Source: Octopus vulgaris
Lineage: Eukaryota
Direction of reading: 5' to 3'
Assembly: GCA_951406725.2 (NCBI GenBank)
Contig: OX597819.1
Span: 85,994,001 to 86,058,000 of the forward strand
Length of the DNA: 64,000 bases
Shown here piece after piece: positions 3,935-63,908 of this stretch (the first letter of the stretch is position 1; each line of letters begins with the position of its first letter). Both the position numbers and the translations under genes were made by a program. The notes under the pieces were generated by a model that searched no databases, was not told the DNA's origin, and saw nothing but the letters and a program-made list of their open reading frames with translations.

Positions 3935-5213
3935 CGAGGGGCGTTCAATAAGTAATGCCCCTGACCCACTTCCCATAGCACTAGAGCAACGAAACTTGTC
4001 ACAGTTATTAGTCTTTTTCTACATAGGAACCACCCAGTGTTACGCATTTCTCCCATCGTTTGATGCAGCTCTGGAGACCGGTTTTGTAGAAGACCCCAGC
4101 TTGGTCCTCCAACCACGACGTGACTTCAGAAATCAAGGCTGCATCATCTGGGAAACGCTTTCCTTTCAAAAACAACATCATGGCTGGGAAGATGTGAAAA
4201 TCAGAGGGTGCAAGATCAGGAGAGTAGGGGGATGGGGGAGGAGTTCATAGCCGCGCGCCTCTGCTTCTGATCTGGTGACACGCGAGTTGTGGACCGTAGC
4301 GTTGTTCTGCAGGAGGAAGATGCCTTTGCTGATCTTGCCCAGCCTCTTGATTTTGATAGCTTCTCTTAATTTCCTCAAAAGTGAAGCATAATAGGCTCCT
4401 GTAATTGTGGTACCCTTTGCCAGGAAATCTGTCATCACTACACCGTCCTGGTCCCAGAAGACTGTGAGCATGACCTTGCCAGCGGAGGGCTGCACCCTTG
4501 CCTTCTTTGGAGGAGGTGAGTCACGGTGCTTCTACTGCATTGACTGGGCTTTGGTCTCTGGATCATAGTGATGGACCCAGGTTTCATCCTGTGTAATCAG
4601 ACTTTTGAAAAATTTTGACTCATCTTCTTGGCACATCTCCAATTCATCCTCGAGCACTCGACGCGTTCTTGCTTCTGGAAAGGTGTGAGCAGCCTGGGAC
4701 TCCTTTTTTGCATATGCAAATGGTCATGAATGATAGTTTCCACAGACCCGGTACTCTTCTTGACCTCATGGGCTATTTGGCGAATAGTTATGCGTCGATC
4801 TTCCAAAATGGCAGCCTCAACCTGACGGACAGATGCCTCATCAATGGCAGAAGGGGGGCGACCAGATCTGGGAGCTGTTTCAACAGAGTTCCGACCATGT
4901 TTGAATTCACGATGCCAGCGTTTTACAAGGTCATATGATGGAGCATCATCACCATAAGTTACTTTCATTTCATCAAAAGTCTCCCGTGGTGTGCGTCCTT
5001 TCAAATACAAAAACCGGATCACTGCTCGACACTCAACAGGCTCCATTTCACACTTGACTCAGTTCAAACACCTGTAAATCAGAAACCACAATTAGTTCAG
5101 AGCTGTAATTTGTCACTCCATCTATAGAGATATAAATAATTGCACATGCAAAATGTCAGCTAGATAAAACAACTGCAAGTGGGTCAAGGGCATTACTTAT
5201 TGAACGTCCCTCG
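3935..5213 (-). mobile_element. Full-length mariner transposon (irritans-subfamily-like) with TA TSD
   Basis: TIRs CGAGGGGCGTTCAATAAGTAATGCCCCTGACCCACT / AGTGGGTCAAGGGCATTACTTATTGAACGTCCCTCG; TA at 3933-3934 and 5214-5215; ~1.28 kb. Confidence 0.95.
3990..5046 (-). pseudogene. Mariner DD34D transposase, frameshifted
   Basis: MEPVECRAVIRFL...PRSGRP HTH region, DETWVHHYDPETK, SAGKVMLTVFWD and YSPDLAPSDF motifs split across frames; 3' end approximate. Confidence 0.93.
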
Positions 5214-6641: not shown

Positions 6642-9071
6642 TCACAAGTGCCTCAACCTCAGCGCGTGCCTGTGCATCATCAGCCCACCCTTTAACTGTT
6701 GTTGGCAGCAAATAGAACGTCTCACAAGCGGTTTCGAGACCTTCAACAAGAAGCGGAAGAGCTGTCTTTTCAGCTTCATCAACCACGAATCAGGGCAGGA
6801 AACGGCGGTTAGGCGGTATGTTATGACCGATGCGATGAACACATTGGCCACCTCCAACCTCCCTCTCAGGCATAGCAACCGCCAAGACCTGGTCTTGACT
6901 AAGCGGGCCACCCTGCTCGCTACCTCGGCCCAGTTTTTCTCTATTTGGAGGCCTGGTCCAAACCAGACTCCGAGCAACTTAATCGGACCCTCCGTCCAAC
7001 GTCCCACGACGCTGTCAGGAGGTATCGACGTGTCTTTCCAGGTGCCGAGCTGCAAGCCGCCTGACTATTCATGATTAACCTCTGCGCCTGCTACCGTCTC
7101 GATGTTGAGATAAATTTCAAGGATCCACCTAAGGAGCCAAGACCCAGGCCGAACTGTGTCAGAACGGACACCAGGTAAAGATGGTCAACTCTATCAAAAG
7201 CCTTTGATTGGTGTAAATGGACCACTGCCCCTCCCTTGCTAGAATCATTATTAAACCCCTCTACGGTGTACAGAAGATGGAGATTATCCTGAATGGTTCT
7301 ACTGAGAACGGCACATGCATGTGCCTTCCCAATCAAGCCATCCACGACACACGCCAGTCTTTTCGATAACACTTTGGCCCAAATCTTCAGCTCTGTGTTT
7401 AGCAGAGTGATGGGCCGAAAATTATCAATGCAATTATCAATCTCGGAATTGCCAGTTCGCGTAGACATCCGCCAGCAGGTGCCCGAACAAGTCTGGCATA
7501 CTCTTATACAGTTCATAGGATAAATTATCCAGTCCTGGCGCCCTACCTGTGACGTAATCTGCCATAGCCTCAATTACCTCCTCAGGTGTGATCGGCCCTT
7601 TACAACACTCCACATCCTGCCCCGAGAGGCGCAGCAGCCCGGCGAAGAAGTCCGTTAGGTCCCTCCTACTGTCTGCACTCCTCCGAAAAACTGGGCAATT
7701 TGCTCCTGCAAGTCCTCACACATCTCCTGGGCATTGTCTATCAACTTACTTCCTTGATTCGTCAAAGATCGAATTGTGCCATCGTTGCCAAGTTGGGCTT
7801 CCATCACTCAGACCCATTCTGCGGCCTTGATTCATTCACAACCCATTATACGAATCCTAGTTCTGACAATACAACCCATATGTTGGGCTTTGAGGTGCTA
7901 ATTTAACGCCAGTCTCTTGGCCGTCACCTGACCTGCAGAGCCAGATTCCATTACTTCCTCTAAGTCAAGCTAATGATAATCCCTTCCTAGTCTCTCTAGC
8001 CACTAACCCTATGCTATATCTAATAGACACAAATTTAATGGCTTGCTTGAGGGCATACCGCCATTTGTTATTAATAATGGATCCGGTTAATGCCCTCTGA
8101 ATCAATTACTTAATCCGGTCTCTGTACTCCTTAATCGCCAAAAGGGAGGTATTAAGTTTCCAGTAGCCGGACCCCCTATTATATAACTTATCTATGTCGA
8201 GCGTACAGGTGATCACTGTAGCTGAGCGGAAAAAAACTATGGACACCTAACAATATCCTTATCTGCTTTCCTAACTAACACCCTATCTAGGTATGACCTG
8301 GATGATCCATCGCTGTTTGACCATGTCCACAATGGCGCGTTCGGAATTTCCAGCCTATAAGTATCTACTAGCTCAAAGCGGCTTAGCAGTTCCAGGAAGC
8401 AAGGATTACCTCTTCTATCAGAACACAAGCCAGCATAATCTACGCGTGTGTTGCAGAATTTGTTATAATCTCCTAGCACAACTAGAGAATGTGATGTACT
8501 GAGAAACTTCTCCAGGTTCCGAAAATATCCACTTTGCCCGTTTTCAGTGGGTGCATAAATTGCAACCAGTCTGATAATCTTACCACGGCTGAGCCTCAGG
8601 TGCACGCCGAGCAGCCTACCTTCTGGATCTGAAAAAAATAATTTTTCTCAGAAACCTGGTTTCTTTTTAACAGTATCAACACCCCACTCCCGCCAGTAGG
8701 ACAGCCCGGAGAGAAAAACTCTCGTAGCCATCAAATAGCAGGAGATCTCTTGACCTCCTTAACCGGGTTTCCCTAGAAACAATGACATCCAAATCACGCG
8801 ACTTGATGTCATTAAGGAAGCGACCTTGCTTCCAGCTTGACATCAGGCCACGCACATTCAAACAACCTACATGAATACAAGCCATCTACTTATCTTGGCA
8901 TCTTGTAACCGTCAAACAGCGGAGAAGATCTCTTGGGCCCTTCAACCGGGTTTCTGTAGCAACAACATCTAAATCCCGTGACCTGACGTCATTTAAGAGG
9001 CATTCTTGCTCCCAACTAGACGTTAGGCCACGCACATTTATACATCCAACGTGAATGCTTGACATGGACAT
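6642..9071 (-). pseudogene. LINE ORF2 (apurinic-like endonuclease + reverse transcriptase), disrupted
   Basis: VGCINVRGL, ETRL, LVAIYAP, VVLGDYN, SYLDRVLV, GYWKLN, NFRPITLLNTELKI, SKAFDRVDH, IKLLGVWF motifs. Confidence 0.9.
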
Positions 9072-13710: not shown

Positions 13711-14366
13711 ATTTCTACTAAAGGCGCAAGGCCTGAAATTTTTTTTGGGCGGAGGACTAGTCGATTACATTGACCCCAGTGTTTTACTGTTACTTAATTT
13801 ATTGACCCCAAAAGGATGAAAAGCAAAGTTATAGTCGGTGGAATTTGAACTCAAAAACGTAGCGATGGCGAAAATATCGCTAAGCATTTCGTTCAGCATG
13901 CTAACGATTCTGCCATCTCGCATATATCAATAATAATAATAATAATAATCATCCTTTCTAAGGCGACGAGCTGGCAGAATCGTTAGAACGCCGGGTGAAA
14001 TGTTTAGCGGAATTTCGTCTGTCTTTATGTTCTGAGTCAAACTTCCACCGAGGTCGACTTTGCCTTTTATCCTTTCGGGGTTGATTAAATAAGTACCAGT
14101 TACGCACTGAGGTCGATATAATCCACTTAATCTGTTTGTCCGTCCTATTCCTTTACTACCCACAAGGAGCTAAACACAGAGAGGACAAAGAAGGACAGAC
14201 AAACCGATTAAGTCGATTATATCGACCCCAGTGCGTAACTGGTACTTATTTAATCGACCCCGAAAGGATGATAGGCAAAGTCGATCTCGGTGGAATTTGA
14301 ACTCAGAACGTAGCGGTAGGCGAATACCGCTACGCCCGGCATGCTAACGATTCTGCCAGCTCACCT
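13711..14366. mobile_element. Cluster of three family-A SINEs: minus (13711-13922), plus (13962-14143), minus (14144-14366)
   Basis: Same core as 2191-2588 in alternating orientation, separated and flanked by (AAT)n. Confidence 0.85.
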
Positions 14367-14406
<40 letters not shown>

Positions 14407-16319
14407 TACATTCTCGTTTTATTTTGTATTTCTTTTGGAATTTTGCTCATTGGGTTATGGACATCCTAGGCAATATTTTAGTTAATAATGAAGGTTTCAC
14501 AACTCAGCCTTGTACATTAGTTTCTCACTGATTGAAATAGAACTTAAAAATATCTATTTTGTGAACCAATTTACTGTTTTACATCTGCATACACGAAATA
14601 AAGCGAAAATAGATATTATGCCACATCCTAGTATAATATATTTTTACCTAAGTTGCAGTTTAAATAAGTTTTCCATAAGTATTAATGAATACTATCACCA
14701 GGATACATTATTGTAAGGACTATGTAATGTTGTAAATGTTACTTCACATGCAAATAAGGACTGCCAAAAGTGGTTTGTGCATAGAATTTTAGACATATGA
14801 GATGCAAAAACTACCTCTTGTGTATACTATATATACTTTATCTATTACCTTTTCACTCACACTACTAAGTGCCAAAAGTGTTACGTGCTTATTTCACGTA
14901 ACCTTTTACATTTAGAATCTTAGATGTATGGGACGTAATATTACCTCTCGTATTTGAATGTATAAATCATTTATTACCTTTTAACCTGCACCACTAAATA
15001 AAGATATTTACAGAATGGTTACAACAGTTTTTCAGATGTTATCACTGCCTGAATGTAAAGAAGAAGAAAGGAAGTAAATTCAAAACAAATTTTGAGGCTA
15101 TGGACATTTATATATTGCAAATATACATTACCAATGCGAACAAGATTTACCCATATAAACAATATTTTTCTCTTTCCTTTGCCTTAAAAGACTTCTTTGA
15201 ATATATTATACACTAATGTATAATTGTCGTGTTCGCATGTATATTGAATAGGAGGAAAAAGTTTGTATCTGCTACGAACATCGTCTTAACGAGAAATGAA
15301 ACTTTTAAGCTAAAGCTGCCATGAATAAACGTTTTTACTCTTATACGATTTATCTAGTCTTTTTCTGGTGTGTACTAATCGATATGACTATTAAGTTAAC
15401 TATAAGTTGTAAAAGCAGAATAGTATACTTCTTTCCAGTTACCCTGGTATACCTTAAAAATTGCAAAAGAATTGACAGGCTCAGTATTGAAATGTTATTG
15501 TTTTGTGAGGAAGCTATGCCTGGGATCATAGCTACAGATATATTCCAAAAGTACTCTAGTTTGCAACAAATGCAAATATTTGAATTTTTCTCTGTCTTAA
15601 GCTTCCTACAGTTTTGTGTTCTCTGTACCAAAATTCGTTTTCCCTCTTTGAATGTCGACAAACATACATATCTGGTAAAAGTATCAGTTGCGTGTTGTTT
15701 TTTTAAAATTTTTATTGCATGTGTTTTAAAATACAATAAAATATTAGATTACATAATCATTGTACCCGCTTACGACAACATTATTGCGATTTGGAAATAC
15801 GAGGATTTGATATACTAAAACATGTTATATCTAAGGATAACAAAACAAGATATATATTTCAAATTGACTATGAGTAATGTATACACACATCCGCACACAC
15901 ACACACACACATACACACACACAAAGGTCTATATTATATATATGCGTGTGTGTATATGTGTTGTGTGTGTGTACGTAGGCATACATGTATTTACAAAATC
16001 TGGACGAAATGATGGAAAAAATACTGTTCATTTGTAACATGACAAATTCGAAACTGTCTATACATAAGGGTTTATATACATTTTGGATGTTGTGTACATC
16101 ATGATACAGGCTTATGTCTTTCTATCTCTGCAGATAATTTATATATAAGTAAGTTAAAATGAATGAACTATTTCATTTCCAAAAAGAAAAGATTTTGAAG
16201 CACGGATAACTGGAACTCCATTCACTAAAACTTCTCATTGTTTACTGTTTCAAGAGAAAACATCTCGAAAATCAAGTTAGATTTCAAAACCAAGTCAAAA
16301 CAAGTTTAAGTAATTCAGT

Positions 16320-19694: not shown

Positions 19695-22551
19695 CTCTGG
19701 TCAATAAAAATAAAATATTTGAAATGATGTCGAGATACCAAACATCTTTTTTTTTAGCTAATTTGAGAGTGCTGAATCTGAAAATAACCTTACTTTTTCT
19801 TGGTTAGCTACCGCTTTTGCTGTACAGAAATGCCTCGTTTTTGGAAAAAAAACATTTTTTTCATTTGTTTTCTGTATACTTGATATTGATCGATGGCAAT
19901 ATTTCTCAAAGTAAAATCGTAGAAACCTCTCAATTCGTATTTAAACCAACAAATATTGGTCTGTCTATTGAGAAATACTATTTTTGCAATAACAATTAAA
20001 CCCTAAGTCTTTAAAAATAACACGATTGAATATACAAAGACCATCAAGCATTTTCATAAAATCATTAAATAAACTAACAGCAGAAATTAAATCTTCGTGA
20101 ACATAAGAACTATGGTAAAAATGTTTTCTTTCTTGATTGACAGTCATGTTCAATGTTATTTAAGCCCCTTTTGATACTCCAGCAGTAGTCAACCATCATT
20201 CCTCTGTCCCACCGTCCCTGGTAGTGCTTTTCCATTGTTTTCATATCCTGATGGAATCCTTCTCCTTGCTCATCACTCACATTGCCGCAATTATCTGGAA
20301 ATTCATCTAGATGGCTATGTAAAATGAACCTTCATACTCATATAAGTGTCTATGTCCTGTACACTTTTCAACAGCTTTTCCACTAACTCCTTGTAGTTTT
20401 CGGCCCGGCGATTGCCTAAGAAGTTTTTCGCCGCGTCAACAAACGATGTCCAAGCACGTAATTCCAAGTCATTCATTGAATTAACAAATTAATCATCCTT
20501 AATGAGTTTTCTGATATCAGGACCATCAAAAATTCCTGCATTGAGTTTTTCGGTGCTAAGTCCTGGAAACGAGTTACATATATACTCAAAACATTTACTT
20601 TCTTTGTCGTGTGATTTTACATACTGTTTCATTAATTCCAATTTGATATGCAAAGGAGGGAACATGATTTTTCTTTCGGAACTAGCGCTGCACTAATAAC
20701 GTTCTTTTCACTGACCTTCAACTCTCGGGGTGGCCACTCTTTCCTTTTCCAGTGCTCCTTTTTTTCTCTATTGTCCCACATACACAAAAAACATTGGAAT
20801 TTCGTGTAGCCACTTTGTTGGCCAAACAGGAAATTTACAATTTTCAAATCGAATGTAGTCAATCTGTTCCATAACCCTTTTGATGGCATCGTATTTTTCT
20901 TTCAGTGTTGTTGAATGTCCTATAGGTATTGGCGCATACATATTGGTATTATGGAGCAAAACACATTTCAAACTACGTTTTGAACAATCAATGAACGATC
21001 TCCTTTCATCAGGATCGTGTTTGTGGACGCCTAGTCGAAGAAGAACGCTCTCAACGTCATTGCAATGAACAAGATTCGTGTTCTCCTTAAGGAATGGTAC
21101 AAATTCGGCATCCCTATTTCGATAGAATGTTACCTTTGTGCCTTTTGCTAACAGGTGTTTTTCATTGAGCCTAGACGTCAAAAGTTCTGCAGATGCTTTG
21201 CTTACATTTAAGTCTCGAACCAAATCATGCATTTAGTTAAACAGCTGATGTTGGCTTAAACAGCTCTGGCACAGTTTCGGGAACATAGTCAGGATCATTT
21301 TCGCTGTGTCTCTCATTTACATCAGTGTCAGACTCGTCACTTTCAACAAGTTTCAACAAATTTGCGTGTAAAACTGTGATTGGCAAATCATCTGAATGCG
21401 GCACTGGTCGAATAGCGGAATGAAGACTGGGATAGTCGATAGATCTGCGTTTCTTTTGGTTCAGTCCTTCAACACTGACTGAACAGAAGTAAAATTAGTC
21501 AGAGTGGTTCTTTGGCTCACGCCAGATCATAGGTATAGCGAATCTCAGCGATTTTCGGGTACCTGAAGTCCACTGTCTCATGTGTTCCAAACATGCCTTA
21601 CAAAAACAATGTGAGGAGCCCATGGTTTGTCCTGATCACCAAGATTGGCGTGAAAGTAAGCACGACAGACTTTCTTGTAAAAGTCAGATATCGGTTTCCT
21701 GTTGTCTTTCGGTGTGAACTCGCCGCATGTATAGCAAAATAAGTCGGGATCATTTTTGCATCCTCTCGTTGAAGTCGTGTCATTTGATATCTATCTCTAT
21801 GATTAAAAAAGAACATAAGTTGGTTGAGCATTTACATTACACATTGCGTGTTCACATTTAAGTAATTTGATCTTTTCCTGATTTCCTACGGAAAGACTCG
21901 TAAAAGTGTCAATATCAAAAGACGGAAAGAGTCCGTATCTTCGTAATACCGTGTGAAGGGCAGATGCTATGGTGAAACCATTTTCATGATGTTCATCATG
22001 TAGAATGGAATAGGTGCATTCAATTGGGATGTCTTTAGTTGGATTCTTTTTTTCCAACTGTGAAAACAAAAACTCTTAATGTGCATGGTTTCCTTTCGTG
22101 TTGAAAGGATAAAAGTGATGGGAGAAATTTATGAATATCGAACAGAAGATTTTAGGGTTTCCTTTGTTTTGATGTCACCTTAATTCTCAGGTTTACTAAA
22201 GTGTATTACTGATAAAGTTCGTCAGTTAATTTGAATTTTGGCAATAAATTAGAAAAGTTTGGTACTTCTATTTAAAATTTTTGACTGAAAACACTTTTTT
22301 TTATAAAAATAGTTTATTTCAGGCGGCTGACATAAATTACTTGGCTTACCTGAAAATTCATGGGTTTCTATTACATTTTTTAAACTAAATTTTGTGATCA
22401 ACCAAGATCGGAAATTGATCTTTTTCCAAAAATGAACAATTTCAGTGCAGCAAAAACGGTAGCTAACCATGAAAAAATAAGGTCATTTTCGGAATCAGCA
22501 CCATCAAATTAGCTAAAAAAAAAAACGTGTTTTGTTTCGTGTTGACCAGTG
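19695..22551 (-). mobile_element. Full-length Chapaev3-type (CMC) DNA transposon with TTA TSD
   Basis: Termini C(T)CTGGTCAA.../...TTGACCAGTG, imperfect TIRs of roughly 130-170 bp (TTAGCTAATTTGA..GTGCTGA.TC.GAAAAT.ACCT), TTA at 19692-19694 and 22552-22554. Confidence 0.85.
20110..21783 (-). pseudogene. Chapaev3-like transposase, frameshifted
   Basis: FCYTCGEF, LGDQDKPWAPH, IWREPKNH, DLVRDLNVSKASAELLTSRL, FIDCSKRSLKCVLLHN, QQSGYTKFQCFLCMWD, PPLHIKL, SDEQGEGFHQD, YQGRW, DYCW. Confidence 0.85.
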
Positions 22552-23440: not shown

Positions 23441-23723
23441 ATTGGTTCACTTCTCAGTAACATACAATCACAATCATGTTTACCTATTTTTTCCCATTTC
23501 ATGTTTTTCCGTTTGCACTTTTGACTTCGATTCTGGTCCTGATCAATGGTTTGATGACGACTTACCGTACATTATCAGACACTCTTTGCTTGTCGTGCAC
23601 AACAACTTACCTGTTAGCAGTTCTGGTCTCGTTAACGCAGTTAAGATTATTACTTGAATTTGACGTCACTCATTTTGAGGTAATATTTATAAGGAGGCAA
23701 TCACCAGTATTTTTATCATAACA

Positions 23724-23957
23724 CCTATTTCTTTACTACCCACAAGGGGCTAAACACAGAGGGGACAAACAAGGAAAGACAAACGGATTAAGTCGATTAC
23801 ATCGACCCCAGTGCGTAACTGGTACTTATTTAATCGACCCCGAAAGGATGAAAGGCAAAGTCGACCTCGACGGAATTTGGACTCAGAACGTAGCTTTAGA
23901 CGAAATACGGCTACGCATTTCGCCCGGCGTGCTAACGTTTCTGCCAGCTCGCCGCCT
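23724..23957 (-). mobile_element. SINE family A, full length, low divergence
   Basis: Reverse complement of GGCGGCGAGCTGGCAGAAACGTTAGCACGCCGGGCG...GTGGGTAGTAAAGAAATAGG. Confidence 0.9.
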
Positions 23958-24710
23958 TATTTTTATCATAACACTATCACACGTTGCATTGCCAACCATG
24001 ACTCAGTGAGTCCAAACCTACCCTCATATACACTCTGATGAATGGCTGTTGACTCTCATGAGTTCATCTGCCCTTCAACGGGACTTGTTTTGCTCCTGCA
24101 TCCACCATCCTCTTCGCTGAGAACTCTTTGTGGGTTTGGCGCTTTAGTTCCTGACGACCCGGCCATTGCAGTGTTTATTGTAAACCAAATTACAAGATAC
24201 ACTCATTAATACCAGAAGCTCGCAAGGCACACTCTCTAGACCAACACAATAATGCAAGCACAACATATAAAACTACAAAACCTCCTACCCCTCAGTTCCC
24301 ACTATCACTGCTTGATCTAACACATCTATCTTCATTTTCTTTATCAGCATTATTATTACTCTACTTATAATAATAATTATCACCATCCTCATCACGGCTA
24401 CTATTGCAATTACATGTTACTAACACTTCTAATTTTATACTCACTATCACTACAAACTATGACTATCACTATTTTTATCATCTTTAGCACAATCTTTGTC
24501 AAGATTTCTGTTATAGGTAGCGAGAGATGGATTCAGCGAGTACATCGCCAAAACACCAGCAAGTTTTCAACGTTAGAGATATAAGTAAAACAAAGTAGAA
24601 ATATAACCTATCATCTGAAATTTGATGCGAAAAAGAAAACAAATTAACAAACATTGCCATACTGTTATTCTACATGCAAAAGAAGTAAACAAATGATTTT
24701 ACCTGATTTT

Positions 24711-24808: not shown

Positions 24809-24887
<79 letters not shown>

Positions 24888-24915
24888 CATCATCATCATC
24901 ATTATTATTATTATT
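24712..24915. repeat. (AAT)n/(ATT)n compound microsatellite
   Basis: Direct reading; strand switch near 24752. Confidence 0.95.
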
Positions 24916-26770
24916 CAGTAGTCATATTTTTATCATGTGCTTTCACGGCACTGCCAATCGCCGCTCTGTGTGCCTTGGGTATCTGTTGTAGTTTGTTGTG
25001 ATGTCCTTATTTTTACTGTATTGAAAGTGCTTTACATAGGATGTGTGCGGTGCCTAGAAGTGCTATCTATATATGTTGTATATATTAGCTAGTTGTAGTG
25101 ATCTTCTTATGTAGTTAATGCGTCTACTGCGATTGGAATTGTTTCTGTTTCTAGACTCCACATTCTATTTCCAAATCTTTGTATTTTGAAAGTTTATCCG
25201 CTTTTTAAGAGAAGCTTTGTCATGTGTTGGTATTGATACATCGATTAGAAAGCATATTTTGTTCTTGGTGATCTCTAACAACTATATCTGTCCTATTGGC
25301 CTTAATTTCTCTAAGTGTATTGGCATATGCCAGAATAGGGTTGCTTTCTCATTTCTTGTGACTTTTCTGGCGTGTACTGACTTTTCTAGGAGTTGATCTT
25401 TGGTATCTCTGCACTTACACTTGCAACCCTTCTGCTCATGTGGTAGGACTCCATTTTCTGGTGATTGCTGTTGTCCCTAAACTTTTTCCATATGCTGTCA
25501 GTTCTGTCCTCCACTTCGCCATACTTTTTCCAAGCATTCGCTCAATATTAGATGCAATACCAAACAAGTTTATACATTCCATAATCTACGAATGTAGGAT
25601 CATATCGTACGCCTTGCGATAATCGATCCATGATATGTCTAAATTAGTTTTCCTCCTCTTGAAGTCTCTAAGTACATGTTTGTCTACTAGGAGTTGATCT
25701 TTGGTACCTCTGCACTTACACTTGCAACCCTTCTGCTCATGTGGCAGGACTCCATTTTATCCAGATGTCCGTACGTTGATTCTGTAAATATTCCAGTCAA
25801 TTTCCACATAAGTAGCAAGCAGGATATCGGCCTGTAATTGTCTACCGCATTGCCATTTGCAATGTTTTTCAAGCACACCACTTTCCTAGCCATTGACAAC
25901 CACTCTGGTGCTGCTTGGTCGGTATTTAACAAGGTGAGGAATTGTGCCGCTATTCGTGGATGATATTCACCAAATCTTTTCATCCAGTAGCCTTGAACTC
26001 CATCTAGTCCCAGAGCCTTCCCGTTGCCCATTTTTTGTTGATTTCCTTCACTTCCTTAACCGAGATCACTAGTTCTGCCTGTTTTGGACAGACTACTGTT
26101 TGTTTCAATTCTTGCAACCATTCAGCATCCTTCTTGTGCCCCTTGTCTTTGCCCCAGATGTCACTCCAAACCTTTGACTTTCAATGTTATCTGGTACCAA
26201 CTTTTCCTCTGTACACTCTGCATTTATTTCTTTGTAGAATCTCTTCTGATCTACTCTGAATAACCTATTCTGCTGGTAACCCTTCATTCTTTGGTCGTAT
26301 CTTACCATTTTTGTCTTCTTTGCAACGAGGCGTTGTTTCAGTTTCTCCATTGCCACTTTCAGGTCCTTTCTTTCAATATTATATTTCCTGTTAAGCGCCC
26401 TGTATTTTTGTTCGCATTTAAGCTCCTCCTTTTCTTTTGGACCTGACGAAAAAAAAAAAAATGTCCTTCGAAAGCATTTCTAATCTCACCTGTATTCTTC
26501 TTTTCTACCGTGGATCTTTTCTTTTGTCACTCCCATTATATTTCTTTTTCTTGACATCAACACCAACATTTTCTTCTACAACAATTCTTGCTGCCTTAAT
26601 TAAATTATTTGTTTCTGTGATGTTTTCCGTTTTGATGTATTTCAGAATTTCATTGACATTTTTCGTTTCTTTGTTCAATTTCACTGATCAACCTTTTTAA
26701 GGTTTCAAATAATGTCGCTATCGCTCTGCTGTAGCCTTTCCCTTATTTTGTTGAAGATTGCCTTTTGCAT
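24916..26770 (-). mobile_element. Composite of Dong/R4-like RLE retrotransposon fragments (3' end + RT region)
   Basis: 24916-25375 matches the 3' end of 34447-37551 in reverse; 25500-26770 encodes [61 protein letters not shown]. Confidence 0.85.
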
Positions 26771-34446: not shown

Positions 34447-37400
34447 GATAAAAATAAAATAATCAAAGAACTGAAAACCACAGAGCTCAAAATGGACCAC
34501 CGACTATACCTCCCAAGAATCAAAATAAACGAAATAACAACACCTATTATAAACAGCATAAACCTAGCCGTCACTGAACTGATAGCCACTGAATCAAAAA
34601 AAAGTGATATCACTGAGCTAAATAACTTAATATACGCAGCAGCCACTGCAGCCACAAAAGAAGCTGGATACTCACCCAAACCCGCCCAAACAGGAGTACC
34701 ACCACCCAAACAAACCCTGTGGATAAATAACATCCAAAACAAAATACAAAAAAATGAGAAAAGATCTGTCAATTCTTAAAGAAATCAGTAGACAATCAAC
34801 GCTACTGAGCAACAAAAAGAAAACAAAAATACTCCGCAAATACAACACCAGAGAAAAAGATTTACCTGAGATAAAAGAAAAGCTAAAGCAAGATATCCTT
34901 GCCAAAGCACAAAGGATCCGCCGGTACAAGAAACGCCAACGCTTCTTTGAAGAAAACAAAAAGTTCAACTCCAACCCCAAAAAGTTCTACCAAGAACTGG
35001 GCAAAAATAAAATAGAAGTCACTGCAGCACCAACGGCAGAAGAATTGGAAGAATTCTGGAGAGAAATATGGTCGGCGAACGAACCACCAAAAAAAAGGAG
35101 TATCAAAATAACAAACTCGGCATCTGAACAACTTTGGACCCCCATAACAACTGAAGAGGTCACCCAGGCACTGCAAAGACTAAGCAACTGGAAGGCACCT
35201 GGGCATGACAAGATCCCCAACTTCTGGTTGAAATATCTAACAGGAATGCACAAAAAGCTGGCTGAAAACTTTAACAACGTACCAGCAGAGCCAGAGACAA
35301 TGCCTGAATGGCTCACGAAGGGGAAAACCATCTTAATTCCCAAATCAAATGAAACAGAAAAACCAGAAAACTACAGACCAATAACCTGCCTCCCTACTAT
35401 GTTCAAGGCATTTACTGCAGTGATATCACAAAGGCTGAACAAGCACCTGGACGAAAACAAACTGTTCCCAGAAGAGCAGAAAGGATGCCGCAAGGGCTCA
35501 TATGGCTGTAAAGATCAACTAATGATTAATAAAGCCACAACTGAAGACAGCCACAGAAAGAAGAAAGGCCTCAGTATGGCCTGGATTGACTACAAAAAGG
35601 CGTTTGATAGCATCCTCCACACATGGATCCTCGAAACACTAGCCATTAACAAAGTAGCACCAACAATCATAAAATTCATAGAGCACTCTATGAATAAATG
35701 GCAAACAGTCCTACACCTCCAAACAAAAGAGGGACTCATGAAAACCAAAGACATCCCCATTAGAAGAGGAATATTCAAGGGAGACACGCTCTCTCCACTC
35801 CTTTTCTGCTTGGCACTGTCACCTCTATCTGATATGCTAAATAGAACTTGATGCGGATATAAATGTTACGGCAAAACGATCAGCCACCTTTTATATATGG
35901 ATGACCTAAAACTATACGCTGCAAATGACAAACAGCTGGAAACACTATTAAAGACAGTTCATGGATTTACCAAAGAAATAGATATGAAATTTGGATTAGA
36001 AAAATACGCGAAAGTAACCATGAAAAGAGGAAAACTAGTTAAGAGTAACAACATCATACTAGATAAAACCAATGAAATAAAAGAATTAGACCAAAGCCAA
36101 ACTTACAAATACTTAGGAATCCATGAACTAGATAAGACACAACACACACAAATGAAAGAGAAAATAAAAAAAGAATATTATAGACGAGTTAGATCAATAC
36201 TAAACACAGAGCTCAATGCTAAAAACAAGATAATAGGTATCAACACTTTAGCTGTCCCAGTTATAAGTTACAGCTACAATATCCTTAACTGGACACGAAA
36301 TGAACTGACCAAAATAGATAGGAAAACAAGAAAAATAATGACAGGATCTAGGATGCATCACCCAAAATCTGACATAGAAAGACTATATATACAACGTATA
36401 GAAGGTGGTAGAGGCCTTATACAGCTGGAAAACTACTATAAAATAACCACCATAGGACTGCAAAAATATCTACTTCAGAAGGAAGGAAAACTGATCCAGA
36501 TAGCGGCAAAACACGAGCAAAACAAAAAACTGTTCTCAGTATTTAAGGAAGCTGACAAATACAAACAAGAAGTCATACCACCTAATAAACATGAAGAAGA
36601 AGAAGAAGAAGATGAAGAAACAACAAAAGCTATAAAACAAATGAAATCCAAACTAAAAATAGAACAGCAACGAATCATGATAAAACGATGGCAAGAAAAG
36701 CCCCTTCATGGTAAATACTGGACTAAACTAAACGCAAAAGAAATAGACAAAGAAAAATCCCAGCAATGGTTGAGAAGCTGAGGACTCAAAGCAGAAACAG
36801 AGGGATTTTTAATTGCAGCACAAGACCAAAGCCTCCCCACCAGAAATTACCAAAAACATGTAATGAAAAGAAATATTACAAGTAACTGCAGAATATGTGG
36901 AGATGGACAAGAAACAATAAATCATATTATCTCTAGCTGCCCAGTCCTGGCTAAGAAGGAATATATTCACAGACATGACAGAGTTGGAACCTACATACAT
37001 TGGAAGCTATGCCAACATTATGGAATAACAACAGAAAAAAGATGGTATAGGCACACACCAGAAAAGGTCACAGAAAACGAGAAAGCAACCATACTCTGGG
37101 ATATGCCGATACACACAGATAGAGAAATGAAGGCCAACAGACCAGATATAGTTGTTAGAGATCATGAAGAAAAAAATGCTTTCTAATTGATGTATCAATA
37201 CCGGCTGATGACAACGTGTCTCTAAAAGAAATGGAGAAACTCTCAAAATACAAAGACCTGGAAATAGAGGTAACTAGTATGTGGAATCTGAAAACAGAAA
37301 CAATTCCTATCATAGTAGGTGCATTAGGCATGATAAAAAAATATTCAGACAAATACATAAAAAAACACTAGGACTTACAAACACATATAACATACAGAAA

Positions 37401-40870: not shown

Positions 40871-41402
40871 GAAGTCTTTATAAGTACCACATCACTATTT
40901 GTTTACTTATTCTGTCTTTTATCTGTTGATATATGAGCTGGTTTATCTTTGCAATAATAATTAATGATGATAATTAATAAGAAAAATCAATAATTTCAGA
41001 ACTCTTCTTCAAATGATTTACTTGCTCTATCTGTGTACCATCTATCAATAAAGTTGTGTATTTTTTCACCTCTGTTTTTCAATTTATGTATCAATTTATG
41101 TAGTCATCTATTCATCATGTAACTTCATTTATTTATCTTCATTTTTCTTTAAACATCTCTCTCACTTGACACCTTGCTATTATCAAATTCCATCTTCATT
41201 TGATATAAAGATTTACGCCTAAAACCTGCCCTCTTACACGTTCCTACCATTTTCAACCTTGCTTTATCTCTCCCGGAGTATGCGTGCACCACAATTTCTC
41301 GGTTGCTTTCATTTCTATATTACAATGTAAGACGAGACAAGTGGTTAACATTCAGGTTACTCACACAACTACCAAAATCCACTTCTGAATACTACTTACC
41401 GA

Positions 41403-41840
41403 AGGCGACGAGCTGGCAGAATCGTTTGCATGCCGGGCAAAATACTTAGCGACACTTTGTCTGTCTTTACGTCCTGAGTTCAAATGTCACCGAGGTTGAC
41501 TTTGCCTTTGATCCTTTCGGAATCGATAAAATAAACTATAGTTGAGTACTAGGGTCGATATAATCGACTTAACTCCTCCTCAAAAATTGCTGGCCTTGTG
41601 CCAAAATTCGAGCCCAATATTACTTACCGAAGGCGGCAGCTGTCAGAATCAGCACGCCGGACTTAGCGGAATTTCCCCCGTCTTTACGTTCTCAATTCAA
41701 ATTCCACCGAAGTTTATAAAATGAGTGACATTGAAGACAGAGGTCGATAAAATAAGTACCAGTTGAATACTGGAGTCGATGTAAACGATTTATCGCCTCT
41801 CCTGAAATTGCTAACCTTTTGTCAAAGTTTGAAATTAAGT
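41403..41840 (+). mobile_element. Two tandem family-A SINEs (41403-41620, 41631-41840)
   Basis: Family-A head and core; TACTTACCGAAGGCG precedes both copies. Confidence 0.8.
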
Positions 41841-42229
41841 CCTTCGCTCCGTATGAAGCATAGACTATCGACGACTTTTCTCCGCTGCTATCGACTTTCG
41901 GCATTCTTCACAGCCACTCTCAAAGTAATCCACCCACTGAGAGAAAGCCTGCCTCTTCCAGGTCTTGTTTATGTTGAACTATCATCGATATTTCTGTAAC
42001 TTTGCCTTGTTCTTGGTAGGGATATTGACCCTATGCGAACCCATTTTACTTTTTGCAAGAAGTGGTCCATATTAGTGTAGCTTCTTTCCTTAATCTGTCC
42101 AGTATGGGACAACCTATTAGGGTGTTGCACTCCGCTGGCATGCCGTCAGCATCATTGAGGCACATAAGTCAATACACTGCAACAAGGATTGGATCTTGTG
42201 GAGGTTCGCAAATTCTGCCCTGCCACAAA

Positions 42230-42415
42230 CATCTATTTAACTCCACTTAAACCTGGATATTTTGCTAGAAGAATCTATTCTGTGGTAGATAGCATGAGAG
42301 AAACACCGTCTTCTCTAGCGCTGAGACCACTAGAACACATGATTTCGACCTTCCTTGGTCTCGTCCATGATGGACACTCGACCTCTAGAGATAGCAGCAA
42401 TTTATCTCCTCACCA
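42230..42415. mobile_element. Deleted older copy of the HHR fold-back element
   Basis: CACTTAAAC.TGGAT.TT...TGGTAGATA.CATGA and CCTTCCTTGGTCTCGTC.ATGATGGACACTCG shared with 42467-42934. Confidence 0.75.
42327..42373 (-). ncRNA. Degenerate type-I hammerhead ribozyme motif
   Basis: Minus strand CCATCA TGGACGA GACC AAGGAA GGTC GAAA TCATGTG TTC TAGTGG: stem II and GAAA intact, CUGA box mutated. Confidence 0.55.
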
Positions 42416-42466
42416 GTCCCAGAACAGGCATTGCTGTCACAATTTGCCAGTAAGTTTATCAACAAT

Positions 42467-42934
42467 TATATATTAGCAGCAGAGGAAGTATTGTTACCGA
42501 GAGCTAATATTTATTCACACTTAAACGTGGATTTTCTTTTGGAACAAACTATACTTGGTAGATACCATGAAAAAAATTCTCATATTGGCTTTTGATGAAA
42601 ATTACACTCGTGTTTATATCGCTAGAGGGAAGATAAGTCCTCGCCATCTCCAGCACCGAGACCACCAGATCGCGTAATTTTGTCCTTCCTTGGTCTCGTC
42701 AATGATGGACACTCGGCCGCTAGAGATAGTGACAATTCATCTCCCTGCCAGCGATATATAGAAAACAGTGCCCATTAGCGAAATAAATAAGCGTGCATTT
42801 TGCACGAAAGGCCCATATGAGAATTTCTCTCATGGTATTTACCGAAGTATAGTTTGTTGTAAAAGAATATCCAAGTTTAAGTGGGGATAAATATTACCTC
42901 TCGATATTAATACTGCCTCTGTCTCTAATATATA
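42467..42934. mobile_element. Fold-back (palindromic MITE-like) element with an HHR motif at its centre
   Basis: Left and right halves are imperfect reverse complements from the TATATATTAG/CTAATATATA ends in to CCGAG/CTCGG next to the central motif. Confidence 0.85.
42662..42708 (-). ncRNA. Degenerate type-I hammerhead ribozyme motif
   Basis: Minus strand CCATCA TTGACGA GACC AAGGAA GGAC AAAA TTACGCGA TC TGGTGG: stem I and stem III base present; C3, G12 and one stem-II base substituted. Confidence 0.55.
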
Positions 42935-43136
42935 TTTTTTACAAATTTTTATATGTAAGAATTATCTTTTGCTCCCTCATGATTTCATAACAGAAAAAAA
43001 TGTCAATAGACTTATAAGAGTCACTAAGTTAATATAATCAACATTTCTACTTCATTTCAGGTATTGTGTATTTTACATTCTGAAATGGAAATTCATTTTG
43101 TATTAGACGGAAATACATGGCAAAATGAAAGAATAG

Positions 43137-47857: not shown

Positions 47858-48319
47858 ATTTTTTCTTCACGATCTCTGACAACTATAGAGAAATTAAGGC
47901 CAACAGACCAGATATAGTTGTCAGAGATCATGAAGTAAAAAAATACTTTCTAATTGATGTATCAATACCGGCAGATGACAACGTGTCTCTAAAAGAAATG
48001 GAGAAACTCTCAAAATACAAAGACCTGGAAATAGAGGTAACCAGAGTGTGGAATCTAAAAACAGAAACAATTCCTATCATAGTAGATGCATTAGGCATGA
48101 TAAAAACATATTCAGACAAATACATAACAAAAACACCAGGACTTACAAACACATATAGCATACAGAAAATTGCACTACTAGGCACTGCACACATCCTACG
48201 CAGAGCACTTTCCATACAACAACCATCAGAGCATCACAACAAATCACAGCACATACCCAAGGCACGCAGAGCTGCGCTCGGTAGTGAAGTGAAAGCACGC
48301 TATAAAAATAAAACTACTG
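47858..48319 (+). mobile_element. 5'-truncated copy of the Dong/R4-like element with (AAT)n tail
   Basis: Near-identical to 37120-37551 (IKANRPDIVVRDHE...SLKEMEKLSKYKDL...); tail 48320-48395. Confidence 0.92.
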
Positions 48320-48331
48320 AATAATAATAAT

Positions 48332-48396
<65 letters not shown>

Positions 48397-57559: not shown

Positions 57560-58965
57560 TTGGTAAATAACTCGCTCCTATTTTCACAAATTCCCATCGT
57601 CCAACATGGTATTGCTTAGAGTGGGCAGTATAAAAGTACGCGGCCTGGGGGTCGTCATGGAAGCAAGCTCGCTTGCTTAATGACCTCAGGTGGTGAAAAT
57701 TACACGTAATAACTGCCAGTGAGACCAGCATCACGGACACGCGCACCTGCGCCTTACCACCCATTTTCGAAGATTATGAGATCTTTGCATCTCTTGGTCG
57801 ACTGGGAATAGGGGCAGAGGTAGGGGTGTTGTTCAGGAAAGTTCTGGATCTCGAGATACGGTCGGTCTTTCTGGACCCGGAAGGTAGGATATTGGTCCTG
57901 GACGTGAATGATAAACGAAGGCAGTGCCTTTAGACTGGTCGCTGTGTACGCACCGACCGGAGTGGGACATCTGGATTTCTTTAGACGTTTGGAGGTCTTT
58001 TTTGGGACGTCTCGCTCCTTAGAATTAACGGGCGACTGGAAAGCCATCTTGGATGTTCATAGGTACTGGGTAGAACTAGCCGACAAGAAAGTGGGGTGCG
58101 CAAGCCTCGCTAACCTGCTCAGTCGTTTCCAATTAGTTGACAGGTTCAGACTGGATTTGCCGAAAGCTTCAATGTGAACATAGGCAATGGCATTTGGTCA
58201 TCCAGATCTTATCTAGACAGGGTACTTTGTAGGCAAAGTGATAAGGATAGCATAAGTTGTCCACAATTTGAAGTTGTCAGCTATACAGACCACAAATTTG
58301 TAATCTGTATGGTCGACCTAGGTAGGCTCAATAAGCAGGGCCACGGATACTGGAAGCTAAACGCGTATTTCCCAGCGCGTTCATTGCTGACTTGTGGAGT
58401 ATCGTCGGACAGTTATTGTTACGTGTTGGACGGGTTCAGCTATCGTCCGATTTTATTGTGAAGATTGCCCCCTCTCCTTCCTTTGGCTGAGAAAGAAAGG
58501 CAGTTTTTCTCTGTCTGGTGGCTATGACGGAAGAGGTTGTACGGGGGACACGATTGAAAGGGTTGAAAACAGGTACCTTTCTCTTTGGCCAGGGCCTCAT
58601 TGATTTTTCATGTTCCACTTGAGAAGGAAGGTGAGACTGCAGAGGGTGGTGCTATCACCCAATAGGTTTGTCGAAGAGTGGGTGAATGTAGCAAGGATAG
58701 CCCATGTGGGTGGGCCTACACTAAGTGTGCGCACGTAGGCCGGATGGAGTGAGGAGGAGAGGGGTGCCTATCTGAGGTGCCTTGGTGCTAAGGGCCCAAA
58801 TTGGGTGAGGTTGTTTTGGTCGCGTCTTGGTTAATCACCCACAATAGGGAATTATATATTAATTGTTGTATTTGTTGGCAGTTTACACGTTTAAACTCAC
58901 TGTCCCGTGTCTGTGTGTCGTCCTCTATGCATTGTGTTCGGCCCTGGTGGTCAATAAAGAAAGAA
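57560..58965 (+). mobile_element. Internally deleted Tx1/L1-like element (endonuclease + 3' end)
   Basis: FLDPEGRILVLDV, FRLVAVYAP, GDWKAILD, SYLDRVLC, YTDHKFV, GYWKLN; ends with AATAAAGAAAG then (ATT)n. Confidence 0.8.
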
Positions 58966-58974
58966 TTATTATTG

Positions 58975-59020
<46 letters not shown>

Positions 59021-59024
<4 letters not shown>

Positions 59025-59130
59025 TAGTTTTATTTTTATAACATGCTTTCACTTCACTACCGAGCGCAGCTCTGTGTACCTTGGGTATGTGCTGTGATTT
59101 GTTGCGACGCTTTGATGGTTACTGTATTGA
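59021..59130 (-). mobile_element. 3' tip of the 34447-37551 Dong/R4-like family
   Basis: CAGTAGTTTTATTTTTATA...CGAGCGCAGCTCTGTG is the reverse complement of 37450-37551. Confidence 0.85.
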
Positions 59131-59142
59131 ATATTATTATTA

Positions 59143-60812: not shown

Positions 60813-60873
<61 letters not shown>

Positions 60874-61036
60874 AGTGGTTGTATAAAGTCAACAAAACGT
60901 GACAGTCCCGTAGAGGGAATTACAACAACGCTATATAGCCCTAGGAAGCATCGACGCTTCCTGTCGACTTTGACACATTTTCTATGTCCTTATATTCGCA
61001 AAGGGGAGGCAAGCACCCCCACCAGCTAGGAACAGC

Positions 61037-61086
61037 AACCTGAATACATGCATGATTCTGGGTATTGCCCATCATCAGTTCAGGTT
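61037..61086 (-). ncRNA. Minimal type-I hammerhead ribozyme motif (left arm)
   Basis: Minus strand AACCTGAA CTGATGA TGGG CAATA CCCA GAAT C ATGCAT G TA TTCAGGTT; GAAT instead of GAAA. Confidence 0.7.
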
Positions 61087-61684
61087 AGCGTGTCCTTTTC
61101 TCTTTATTATAGACACAATGGTCTGATTACATAGAGGGGACAAAACAAGACAAAACGGGAACATAAAACAAATGATGTATGATTGATGGAGTTATTAATA
61201 ATTAATGAGAATGAAACTGTTCGACTCACTCCCGCTGTGAGACGTGCAGTGAATTTTTTCACATTAATTCTCAATACCATCGGGTCTCACTGTGAGGCGA
61301 AACCGCGATGGTCTTCTTTATCAATATCGTAAACTTTATCATTAATTGTTCACATTAGTATTTGTATTTTCCATTTCTATTTTATCTTTTTTTTCCAGCG
61401 TTACATCTTCCTTTTTTTTTCATATGAAATTTGACAGACAAATAACACAAGTTCAATTCTCAGTTCATTTGCAGTTCAATTCATTTTTTTTTTTAAACAA
61501 TTAGTTGCGTTACACTCATAATTATACTTACCGTCTACGTTTTTTTTTCCACATTTATTATTGTCACATTTCTTTTTTCTCTCGTTCTCTTCTCGAGTCT
61601 ACTGCTTCGTTCATCTCCGTTTGTGAGAAGCTGCTCGAAAGTTCGTGTGAGGCCGACGTTTGTCGGTGAAAGAAGAAACTGGAA

Positions 61685-63035
61685 ATGAAGAGCTACGCTG
61701 AAGCGACAGCGGAAGACCCGGAGAAAGAGAAATTAAGAAAGCTAACACTGAAGTCGTTGAATTGGGACCCTGAAAAGATGAAGAGATACTTGAGCAAAGT
61801 AGAAATAGAAGCAACGAATGTGAAGCTTGTAATGCCGGAGGAGAAAAAGAAAATGTTAAGGGATTTAACAAGAGTATACAGAACATTCTCCAACGAATCC
61901 AGGAGGATTGAAATAGCACCGGAATTTCAAATAGAAACAATGGTATCATGCTGTATGGATAGAGTGGTTTTCATAAATAGAGGAAGCCAATACGGCACGA
62001 TAAATATTACATTTGAAAATGTGGAGGCGGAAAAGAAGAATGACCAAGTGATAGAAGGAAATAGTTGGACTCTCATTCCCGACAAACCAGGAAAAAAGTT
62101 GGGGAAAATTAGAGTTGGAAGAATCCCACCCATAATAGAGCCCGAATGGGTAATAGTGGGAATCTTCGGAGAGAACTTGAAGAAAAGAAGTACAAAGTTA
62201 AACGTTCTAACAGTGAGTAAATCACAATGTTTGAATTTTTGAGGTTATGAAATTGAAGCAATTTGCGCTATAACCGAAGAATACTATCAGGAAATACCGG
62301 AAACGGTAGAATTACCGACTGGTGAAAAGTTGGTGATTGTGCTACAGGGAAGACCCCCAAAATGCTACTTGTGTGGCATAAGGGAGCATATGCGAAGGAA
62401 ATGCCCGAATACAGAAGTAGAAAAAAGGTTGGAAACAACAGTGGAAGAAAAAGCAGCCGATGAATAGAAGATGGAGAACAATAATAGAACGAATATGGTG
62501 AAGAGAAGGAAGAGAAAACGTAAAAAGTCGCCAACTTTGGAAGAAGCTAAAAAGAGTAAAGGAGCGGCAGAGAATTTAACTTTTCAGAACGGTAACCCCG
62601 AGGAGCCAACTATGGAAGAGAGAGAGAGATGAAACTGCAAAACGAAGATGAAACAGCGAGAAAATTTAGAGTTATGTGAGCCAAAAGATAGATAACAGAT
62701 GGGAGAGACGCATTTGAAAAAGTCACCAACTTTAGAAGAAACGGAAAAAAAGTAGTGGAATGGCAGAGAATATAACAGACCAGGACGGTAACACTGAAAG
62801 AATATATATGGACGATATGTTGAGAGCGATGAACCTGCAACGCGAAGAAGTGTGGCAGTGGTTTAGGCTCAAAGAAAAAGAACATGGAAGAGAGGTATTT
62901 GCAGTCGGGAGAAAATTCAGATTACACAAACGGAGACGATCGAAGCAGTGGTCTCGAGAAGAGAAACACAAGAAAAGAAAGAGAACGAGGGGGAAAGAGA
63001 AATGTAACAATAATAAATGTGGAACAAAAACGTAG
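61685..63035 (+). pseudogene. LINE-ORF1/Gag-like nucleic-acid-binding protein (RRM-like + CCHC knuckle), with stops
   Basis: MKSYAEA start; reading through TGA 62240 gives ...LQGRPPKCYLCGIREHMRRKCP (CX2CX4HX4C at 62363-62404); basic KRRKRKRKK tract; collinear with the ORF1 at 9080-10653. Confidence 0.8.
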
Positions 63036-63467
63036 ACGGTAAGTATAATTATGAGAGTAACGCAACTAATTGTTAAAAAAAATATATATAAATTGAACTG
63101 CAAATGAACTGAGAATTGAACTTGTGTTGTTTGTCTGTGAAATTTAATATGTAAAAAAAAAGGAAAATGTAAAGCTGGAAAAAAAGATAAAATAGAAAAG
63201 GAAAATACAAAGGCTAATGTGAACAATTAATGATAAAGTTTACGATATTGATAAAGGAGACCATCGCGGTTTCGCCTCACAGTGAGACCCGATGGTATTG
63301 AGAATTAATGAAAAAATTCTCTGTTCGTTTCACAGCTTCATTCCCATCAATTATTAATCACTCCATCAATCATACATCATTTGTTTTATGTTCCCGTTTT
63401 GTCTTGTTTTGTCCCCTCTATGTAATCAGGCCATTGTGTCTATAATAAAGAGAAACGGATACGCTAC

Positions 63468-63513
63468 CCTGAACTGATGATGGGCAATACCCAGAATCAT
63501 GCATGTATTCAGG
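63468..63513 (+). ncRNA. Minimal type-I hammerhead ribozyme motif (right arm)
   Basis: CCTGAA CTGATGA TGGG CAATA CCCA GAAT C ATGCAT G TA TTCAGG; predicted GUA cleavage after 63507; GAAT instead of GAAA. Confidence 0.7.
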
Positions 63514-63733
63514 TTGCTGTTCCTAGCTGGTGGGGACGCTTGCCTCCACTTTGCGAATATAAGGACACAGAAAATGTGTCAAAGCCGACAGGAAGCGTCG
63601 ATGCTTCCTAGGGCTATATAGCGTTGTTGTAATTCCCTCTACGGGACTGTCACGTTTTGTTGACTTTATACAACCACTTTATCGCTCCACCACCGCTCAT
63701 GTCTCGTTCAGACACTTAGAAATTCATTATTTC

Positions 63734-63908
<175 letters not shown>

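Follow-up and report, generated by a model that had tools for sequence, protein, structure and literature searches.

An imperfect palindrome of 468 bp occupies positions 42467-42934 of a 64,000-nucleotide stretch of Octopus vulgaris DNA (the window; GenBank assembly GCA_951406725.2, contig OX597819.1, positions 85,994,001 to 86,058,000), and its unpaired centre resembles, on the minus strand, a hammerhead ribozyme. The question raised by this locus is whether the palindrome is a mobile element in its own right, one long stem capped by a ribozyme, or a structure left behind by the insertion of something else. A first-pass annotation, made from the letters alone, described the former, namely a 470-bp MITE-like or rod-shaped, retrozyme-like element. 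MITEs of the Tc1/mariner type create a TA duplication and are short, non-coding, present in high copy, able to form hairpins and TA-rich at their ends; apart from the duplication, which is taken up below, the octopus repeat resembles them in each of these respects.

Family data

Copies of the repeat were studied in contigs from four public runs, aligned to the window at 80% likeness: another sample of the same species (X2), two related organisms (X6 and X9) and a presumed RNA sample (X13). What is said below of the listed family data refers to the best 40 of 183 letter rows, 15 of 392 joints, 24 of 1844 loose ends and 32 of 10,062 pieces.

Structure of the palindrome

Read on the minus strand, the palindrome consists of a 5' arm of 232 nt, an unpaired core of 35 nt and a 3' arm of 201 nt. 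Global alignment of the arms gave 160 Watson-Crick pairs out of 201, along with 14 G-U, 10 A-C and 17 other oppositions, and the predicted fold (MFE -219.5 kcal/mol, z -17.96) was matched in stability by none of 100 shuffles; the imperfect hairpin described by the first-pass annotation is real. Its very stable fold and its near-symmetric arms with TATA ends are points in favour of an element of fixed length, mobile as a whole palindrome with the hammerhead at its tip.

The further claim that stem I is continuous with the long arms did not survive, as a 27-nt gap in the 5' arm splits the alignment where an outer and an inner duplex meet. The outer duplex pairs 42776-42934 with 42467-42624 (130 of 158 pairs Watson-Crick; 81.8% alike across 159 bp), while the inner duplex pairs 42703-42761 with 42612-42667 (40 Watson-Crick and 8 G-U pairs out of 56). 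The minus strand of 42703-42761 is the native 5' strand of an extended stem I, in which the 6-bp helix I is followed by a bulge and approximately 50 more pairs; it is also present in a second local copy of the repeat (21 of 23 letters identical at 42703-42725), and the inner-stem region (42605-42765) folds at z -6.4. That this inner stem of approximately 56 bp is native and caps the ribozyme also agrees with a palindrome mobile as a whole, but the outer arms show no G-U bias towards the RNA strand (6 G-U versus 7 A-C), which counts against it. Over the whole arms the figures were 14 G-U versus 10 A-C (P = 0.54), and in the inner stem 8 versus 3, numbers too small to be informative.

The outer 159 bp (42776-42934, plus strand) behave as a locus-specific, inverted and 5'-truncated copy of the 3' arm, which creates the outer palindrome and ends at the longer (tailed) end of the family. 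This copy meets the 5' end of the hammerhead-bearing copy at 42762-42775 (minus strand), the site of the alignment gap. Sixteen arm sites were checked against the family majority: 13 carry the majority letter in one arm, 2 have a minority letter common to both and 1 differs in both, which indicates that both arms derive from one sequence. The three arm segments of the locus are mutually 77-82% alike, which fits one insertion event. An assembly artefact was ruled out: X2 record 9 matches 41950-42715 letter for letter, and the orthologous contigs of X6 and X9 diverge from the locus by approximately 2-3%, one of them (X9 record 31) crossing the junction. The presence of orthologues in both related organisms indicates an insertion much older than their split.

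A hammerhead core in two local copies

The letters of the core quoted in the first-pass annotation are exact. The core of copy 1 (42668-42702, minus strand) is that of a decayed type I hammerhead whose cleavage site is predicted to lie between 42668 and 42667. The same strand holds a second core, at 42333-42367 and 335 bp from the first, within a hammerhead module (42307-42416, minus strand) that is identical to 42642-42751 at 88 of 110 positions. Copy 1 has U at position 3 (42702), mismatches in stems II and III and a lost G12 at 42681, a CpG site at which copy 2 keeps the G; its letters suggest that it is probably inactive, as had been proposed. Copy 2 retains a perfect 4-bp stem II and an intact GAAA, has U at position 3 and is decayed at U4 and in stem III, so that the defects of each core are mostly intact in the other. 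Helices I, II and III are paired in 11/12, 7/8 and 5/6 cells over both copies, with no double-sided stem change between these two sequences. The centre had been expected to be better conserved than the arms; between the local copies it is not (core 28/35 versus arm 29/38), as expected for two dead copies.

The family letters were more telling. In X2 the majority letters differ from copy 1 at core sites 42683 (2790 of 3123 depth), 42672 (2850 of 3500) and 42676 (2436 of 3374), and from copy 2 at 42366 (9980 of 10447) and 42335 (6359 of 6775). Together they repair the 4-bp stem II, restore U4 and turn stem III with its loop into a perfect 10-nt palindrome, and the majority letters of X6 and X9 agree with those of X2 at these sites. 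All five majority rows that fall inside the cores, among the best 40 of 183, thus shift toward the hammerhead pattern. The resulting three-helix layout (6, 4 and 3 bp) corresponds to that of canonical metazoan type I hammerheads, in which helix I has 6 bp, helix II 4 bp and a short palindromic helix III enables cleavage as a dimer (PMC4209133). On the strength of these letters, a hammerhead is well supported at the level of the family, as is the assignment of a type I hammerhead to the centre of the palindrome.

It is scarcely credible that the core is a product of chance. No Rfam hammerhead match was obtained in the window or in 42250-42950, loose core matches with up to 2 mismatches number 26 in 64 kb, and the two copies show no compensatory change, all of which would suit a chance match. 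Against this stand the concerted direction of the majority letters and the complementary defects of the two copies, and when the 91-nt apex was shuffled with its dinucleotides preserved, a core with at most 2 mismatches together with a 6-bp stem I arose in only 4 of 1000 trials. Under strict descriptors, copy 2 scored 0 with all four, because of a mismatch at the second stem I pair, and copy 1 scored 0 with the two that require a 4-bp stem II.

Position 3 deserves comment. U3 lies opposite G8 in both local copies, and the compensating A8 is seen in neither. The listed letter rows (40 of 183) include neither position 3 nor G12; a majority of C at position 3 would probably have appeared among them, a weak inference. 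It is possible that the family amplified while carrying a U3-G8 wobble in the catalytic core. The U3-A8 pair is a known natural core variant (PMC3088659), while a search of the literature for hammerheads with a U3-G8 core found no paper.

Organisation of the locus

Along the minus strand, which is the hammerhead sense, the locus begins with the 159 bp of inverted 3' arm, continues with hammerhead copy 1 and its native stem of approximately 56 bp, and passes through a spacer into the decayed copy 2, which extends to approximately 42234. The 3' arm of copy 1 (42467-42667, minus strand) spans the stretch between the predicted cut and the long end of the family and has high family depth from 42496 upward. 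Its last part (42466-42500, minus strand) is the 'tail' between the two 3' ends of the family, is homologous to 42901-42935 and lies within a small stem-loop (42470-42510, -7.6 kcal/mol). The spacer that follows (42417-42466, minus strand) is itself family sequence, and the consensus of loose ends at 42940 agrees with it at 23 of 30 letters (by eye). Beyond the copy 2 module, a remnant of its 3' arm (42234-42303, minus strand; 56 of 70 letters shared with 42824-42893) has suffered a deletion of approximately 62 bp. With a decayed tandem copy 335 bp away and family sequence between, the 470-bp palindrome is not the whole element, contrary to what the first-pass annotation had supposed.

Position 42234 corresponds to 42893, and the locus therefore ends at the equivalent of 42893 on one side and at 42934 on the other. 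The direct array stops 8 nt before the equivalent of the short family end at 42901 and adjoins another repeat: the left flank (41950-42222) is repeated DNA, with a depth of 300-950 in most bins compared to 20, and blurs the left boundary. No convincing target-site duplication was found at the insertion, where the best flank matches are 5-6 bp, and no empty site was seen. As to the TA duplication that a Tc1/mariner-mobilised MITE would leave, proposed earlier as a check, the left TATA end is internal to the tandem.

With family spacer between them and a distance of 335 bp, the two cores on this strand correspond to the tandem arrangement of retrozymes, with one type I hammerhead per unit and a period within 150-450 bp, although both are decayed and do not qualify as 'active' in the sense of the preprint (bioRxiv 10.64898/2026.07.22.740005). 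The decayed copy has no coding capacity and no LTR, PBS or PPT; the longest stop-free frame on the sense strand of 42200-42950 is 57 codons, which in a decayed copy could include the eroded start of an ORF. No RT or GIY-YIG ORF lies within the unit, no PLE ORF was identified among the 8 window ORFs scanned, and no tRNA was called in the insertion region or in the SINE-like repeats of the window. Direct evidence of a closed 335-nt unit comes from a single instance. No significant likeness was found between the 5' end of copy 1 and the spacer (429 of 2000 shuffles scored as high), and the decayed cut-to-cut monomer of 335 nt, folded as a circle, was no more stable than shuffles (z -1.2).

Copies in other contigs

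In X2, 3434 contigs align to the repeat, with a summed depth of up to 27,926 (which is not a copy number) compared to 20 for the locus's own contig. Depth peaks at the 3' ends and drops just 5' of the core. Across 42730-42807, which includes the 42760-42776 junction, it is 1,283-2,183, in comparison with 4,400-27,900 on either side. Of the listed pieces, those that other copies contribute closest to the junction either terminate at 42744-42760 or begin only at 42776, two X13 contigs extend before 42776 as ordinary 3'-arm sequence, and only the orthologous X9 record bridges it. X13 contains 42467-42623 exactly, along with the unique flank 42995-43100 at equal depth, and is therefore uninformative on transcription.

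The family has two 3' ends approximately 34 bp apart, at 42901 and 42935, among the listed loose ends. At 42901, 38, 36 and 31 contigs in X2, X6 and X9, respectively, pass into unrelated AT-rich flanks, as do 31 contigs in X9 at 42935. A different behaviour is seen among the listed ends at 42940-42941 in X2, where 40 and 72 contigs continue in conserved sequence that matches the 42417-42466 spacer. Many of these contigs continue as loose ends (median 121-255 letters) and not into a next core, and they may lead to longer sequence beyond the spacer.

Three of the listed joints (42555>42807, 42555>42825 and 42593>42846) occur in each of X2, X6 and X9 and apparently represent head-to-head junctions located elsewhere in other copies, whereas the joints 42765>42935/42940 and 42706>42941 can be read as tandem junctions. 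Each joint rests on one or two contigs per run, which probably represent loci shared by the three organisms.

The idea of a fixed element, mobile as a whole palindrome, fares badly with these data and is largely refuted; we regard it as very improbable. In place of the fixed terminal inverted repeats and uniform interior of a MITE, the octopus repeat has two different 3' ends, inversion points that vary among the listed copies and a tandem continuation of family sequence past its TATA end, and so possesses neither a fixed pair of ends nor a fixed centre. The junction that such an element would carry in every copy is of low depth and, in the listed pieces, peculiar to this locus and its orthologue. 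The 'retrozyme-like' half of the first-pass description comes close to the reading preferred below, while 'MITE-like or fixed rod-shaped' falls with the locus-specific inversion.

Within the window, no family copies were found beyond the two local ones; a weak match at 15557-15592 (E 0.024) was not convincing. A pattern scan matched 2 loci in viral contigs, and 1 match in metagenome contigs was without the rest of the hammerhead motif. Literature searches on cephalopod and octopus hammerheads yielded no account of such a family, although the supplements of the 2026 preprint may list related families, and none of the 25 matches listed, of 132, in a search on MITEs with hammerheads combined the two.

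Other repeats in the window

The window is AT-rich (25-48% GC per 2 kb), with many microsatellites and LINE and mariner remnants. An unrelated PLE-type insertion lies in (TA)n at 60870-63738, with inverted arms of 756 bp that are 89% alike. Both arms contain a type I hammerhead in which stem III is palindromic and the core reads GAAU, and an extension of approximately 55 bp is present on one side only; no Rfam hammerhead match was obtained in 60950-61150. In the centre, flanked by the two inverted hammerhead repeats, is a gag-like frame that encodes a zinc knuckle (zf-CCHC in Pfam at E 5e-4, just under the cut-off); this sequence may have been captured or may be ORF1-like.

Elsewhere, a LINE with RVT_1 and zf-RVT domains and TAA-repeat tails was found at 34727-37186 (plus strand), LINE-related 3' ends at 24831-25066, 48169-48393 and 58965-59131, a broken LINE with an endonuclease domain (Exo_endo_phos) and RT-like pieces at 6642-8647 (minus strand), and a broken mariner-type transposase (HTH_48) at 4178-5058 (minus strand). 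A dispersed SINE-like family, 71-90% alike, occupies 2183-2427, 13957-14146, 23717-23959 and 41399-41588. The 154-codon frame at 20768-21232 (minus strand), which has no Pfam match, is presumably a transposase fragment, which it resembles.

Discussion

Penelope-like elements (PLEs) leave partial tandems, next to which lies an inverted copy truncated at its 5' end, and one end of the insertion carries a tail of 30-40 bp (Craig 2021, PMC8557442; Arkhipova 2013, PMC3846280). In vitro, a PLE initiates reverse transcription at two adjacent internal stem-loop sites downstream of its hammerhead and cuts both strands of AT-rich DNA; the sequence between the two start sites forms the tail (Frangieh 2024, PMC11167929). 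The octopus locus shares with these insertions a partial tandem and an inverted, 5'-truncated copy next to the 5' end (42776-42934, with other positions in other copies according to the joints). Its 3' ends likewise lie downstream of the hammerhead and close to a stem-loop, its flanks are AT-rich, and a palindrome is formed at the inverted junction. The two family ends at 42901 and 42935 match a one-sided tail of 30-40 bp between two start sites of reverse transcription. It differs from PLE insertions in lacking an RT or GIY-YIG ORF in the unit, in having a canonical hammerhead in place of a minimal one, in carrying the tail on the inverted copy and in the absence of a clear target-site duplication.

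Metazoan non-LTR retrozymes are the other point of comparison. Their periods are 150-450 bp (350-390 in mussel; 330 and 350 in axolotl; Cervera and de la Pena 2020, PMC7229834; bioRxiv 10.64898/2026.07.22.740005), and the 2026 preprint traces them to PLE terminal repeats (Li, Clavereau and Pollet 2026, bioRxiv 10.64898/2026.07.22.740005). The octopus repeat resembles them in being non-coding, of high copy and below 50% GC, with a canonical type I hammerhead and a tandem period of 335 bp; it differs in that the locus is a decayed dimer with U3 and a very long native stem I. The octopus family also has a tail and inverted copies, neither of which features in the main texts on retrozymes (PMC7229834, bioRxiv 10.64898/2026.07.22.740005).

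The best reading of the unit is a non-coding repeat of approximately 335 nt with one canonical type I hammerhead, that is, a non-LTR retrozyme type of non-autonomous PLE. We consider it probable that the palindrome is an old, decayed copy of such a high-copy retrozyme-type repeat, moved by PLE enzymes. Tandem copies would be transcribed, and the hammerhead, probably acting as a dimer through its palindromic stem III, would cut out monomers, which may circularise. A PLE reverse transcriptase-endonuclease would nick AT-rich DNA and start cDNA at two internal sites, 167 and 201 nt past the predicted cut and approximately 34 nt from one another, where the two family ends are seen. At this locus, one cDNA would span approximately 1.8 units (42234-42775) and the other 159 nt, halting just inside the base of the native stem, and the two would have been joined head to head, perhaps in a single event, to give the outer palindrome that is observed. 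A multimeric or circular template, as proposed for PLEs (PMC4209133), would yield the tandem. All segments would later have decayed by approximately 10% each, leaving a copy that is probably dead.

A possible but rather unlikely alternative is that the family consists of 5'-truncated terminal repeats (pLTRs) that carry the hammerhead and belong to an autonomous or long PLE, the locus then being made up of two tandem stubs and one inverted stub with no independent retrozyme. The family depth, highest at the 3' ends and falling just 5' of the core, is as in truncated retrocopies, the listed loose ends at 42940-42941 continue into further sequence, closure of the unit has no statistical support, and the combination of partial tandem, inverted copy and tail is the standard PLE layout (PMC8557442, PMC3846280). 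A second, unrelated inverted insertion of PLE type in the same window also fits. The core-to-core distance of only 335 bp, with family spacer between, and the recurrence of tandem-type joints in other contigs weigh against truncated terminal repeats, as does the hammerhead, whose canonical form is tied to retrozyme repeats while PLEs mostly have minimal ones (PMC7229834), although in some PLEs helix III is small and palindromic (PMC4209133). Both this alternative and the retrozyme-type repeat that we prefer trace the palindrome to a PLE-type insertion, its most likely origin.

Mobilisation of animal retrozymes by PLEs is a published hypothesis, based on shared ribozymes, co-occurrence and sequence kinship (PMC7229834), and the mechanism 'remains to be elucidated' according to the preprint (bioRxiv 10.64898/2026.07.22.740005). 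PLE insertion scars in a high-copy retrozyme family would test this hypothesis from genome data alone. Only tentatively do we propose that the octopus family is exactly that, a 335-nt retrozyme family with the two-start-site tail and the inverted copies of Penelope insertions. If this is true, it would provide direct evidence, from structure, for the copying of retrozyme RNA by PLE enzymes, perhaps over more than one turn of a circular template. A U3-G8 core throughout the family, if true, would be a natural variant beyond U3-A8 (PMC3088659). Hammerhead-centred 'MITEs' can be by-products of PLE insertion, and the octopus repeat is most likely not a new MITE but one more representative of an already known type of element.
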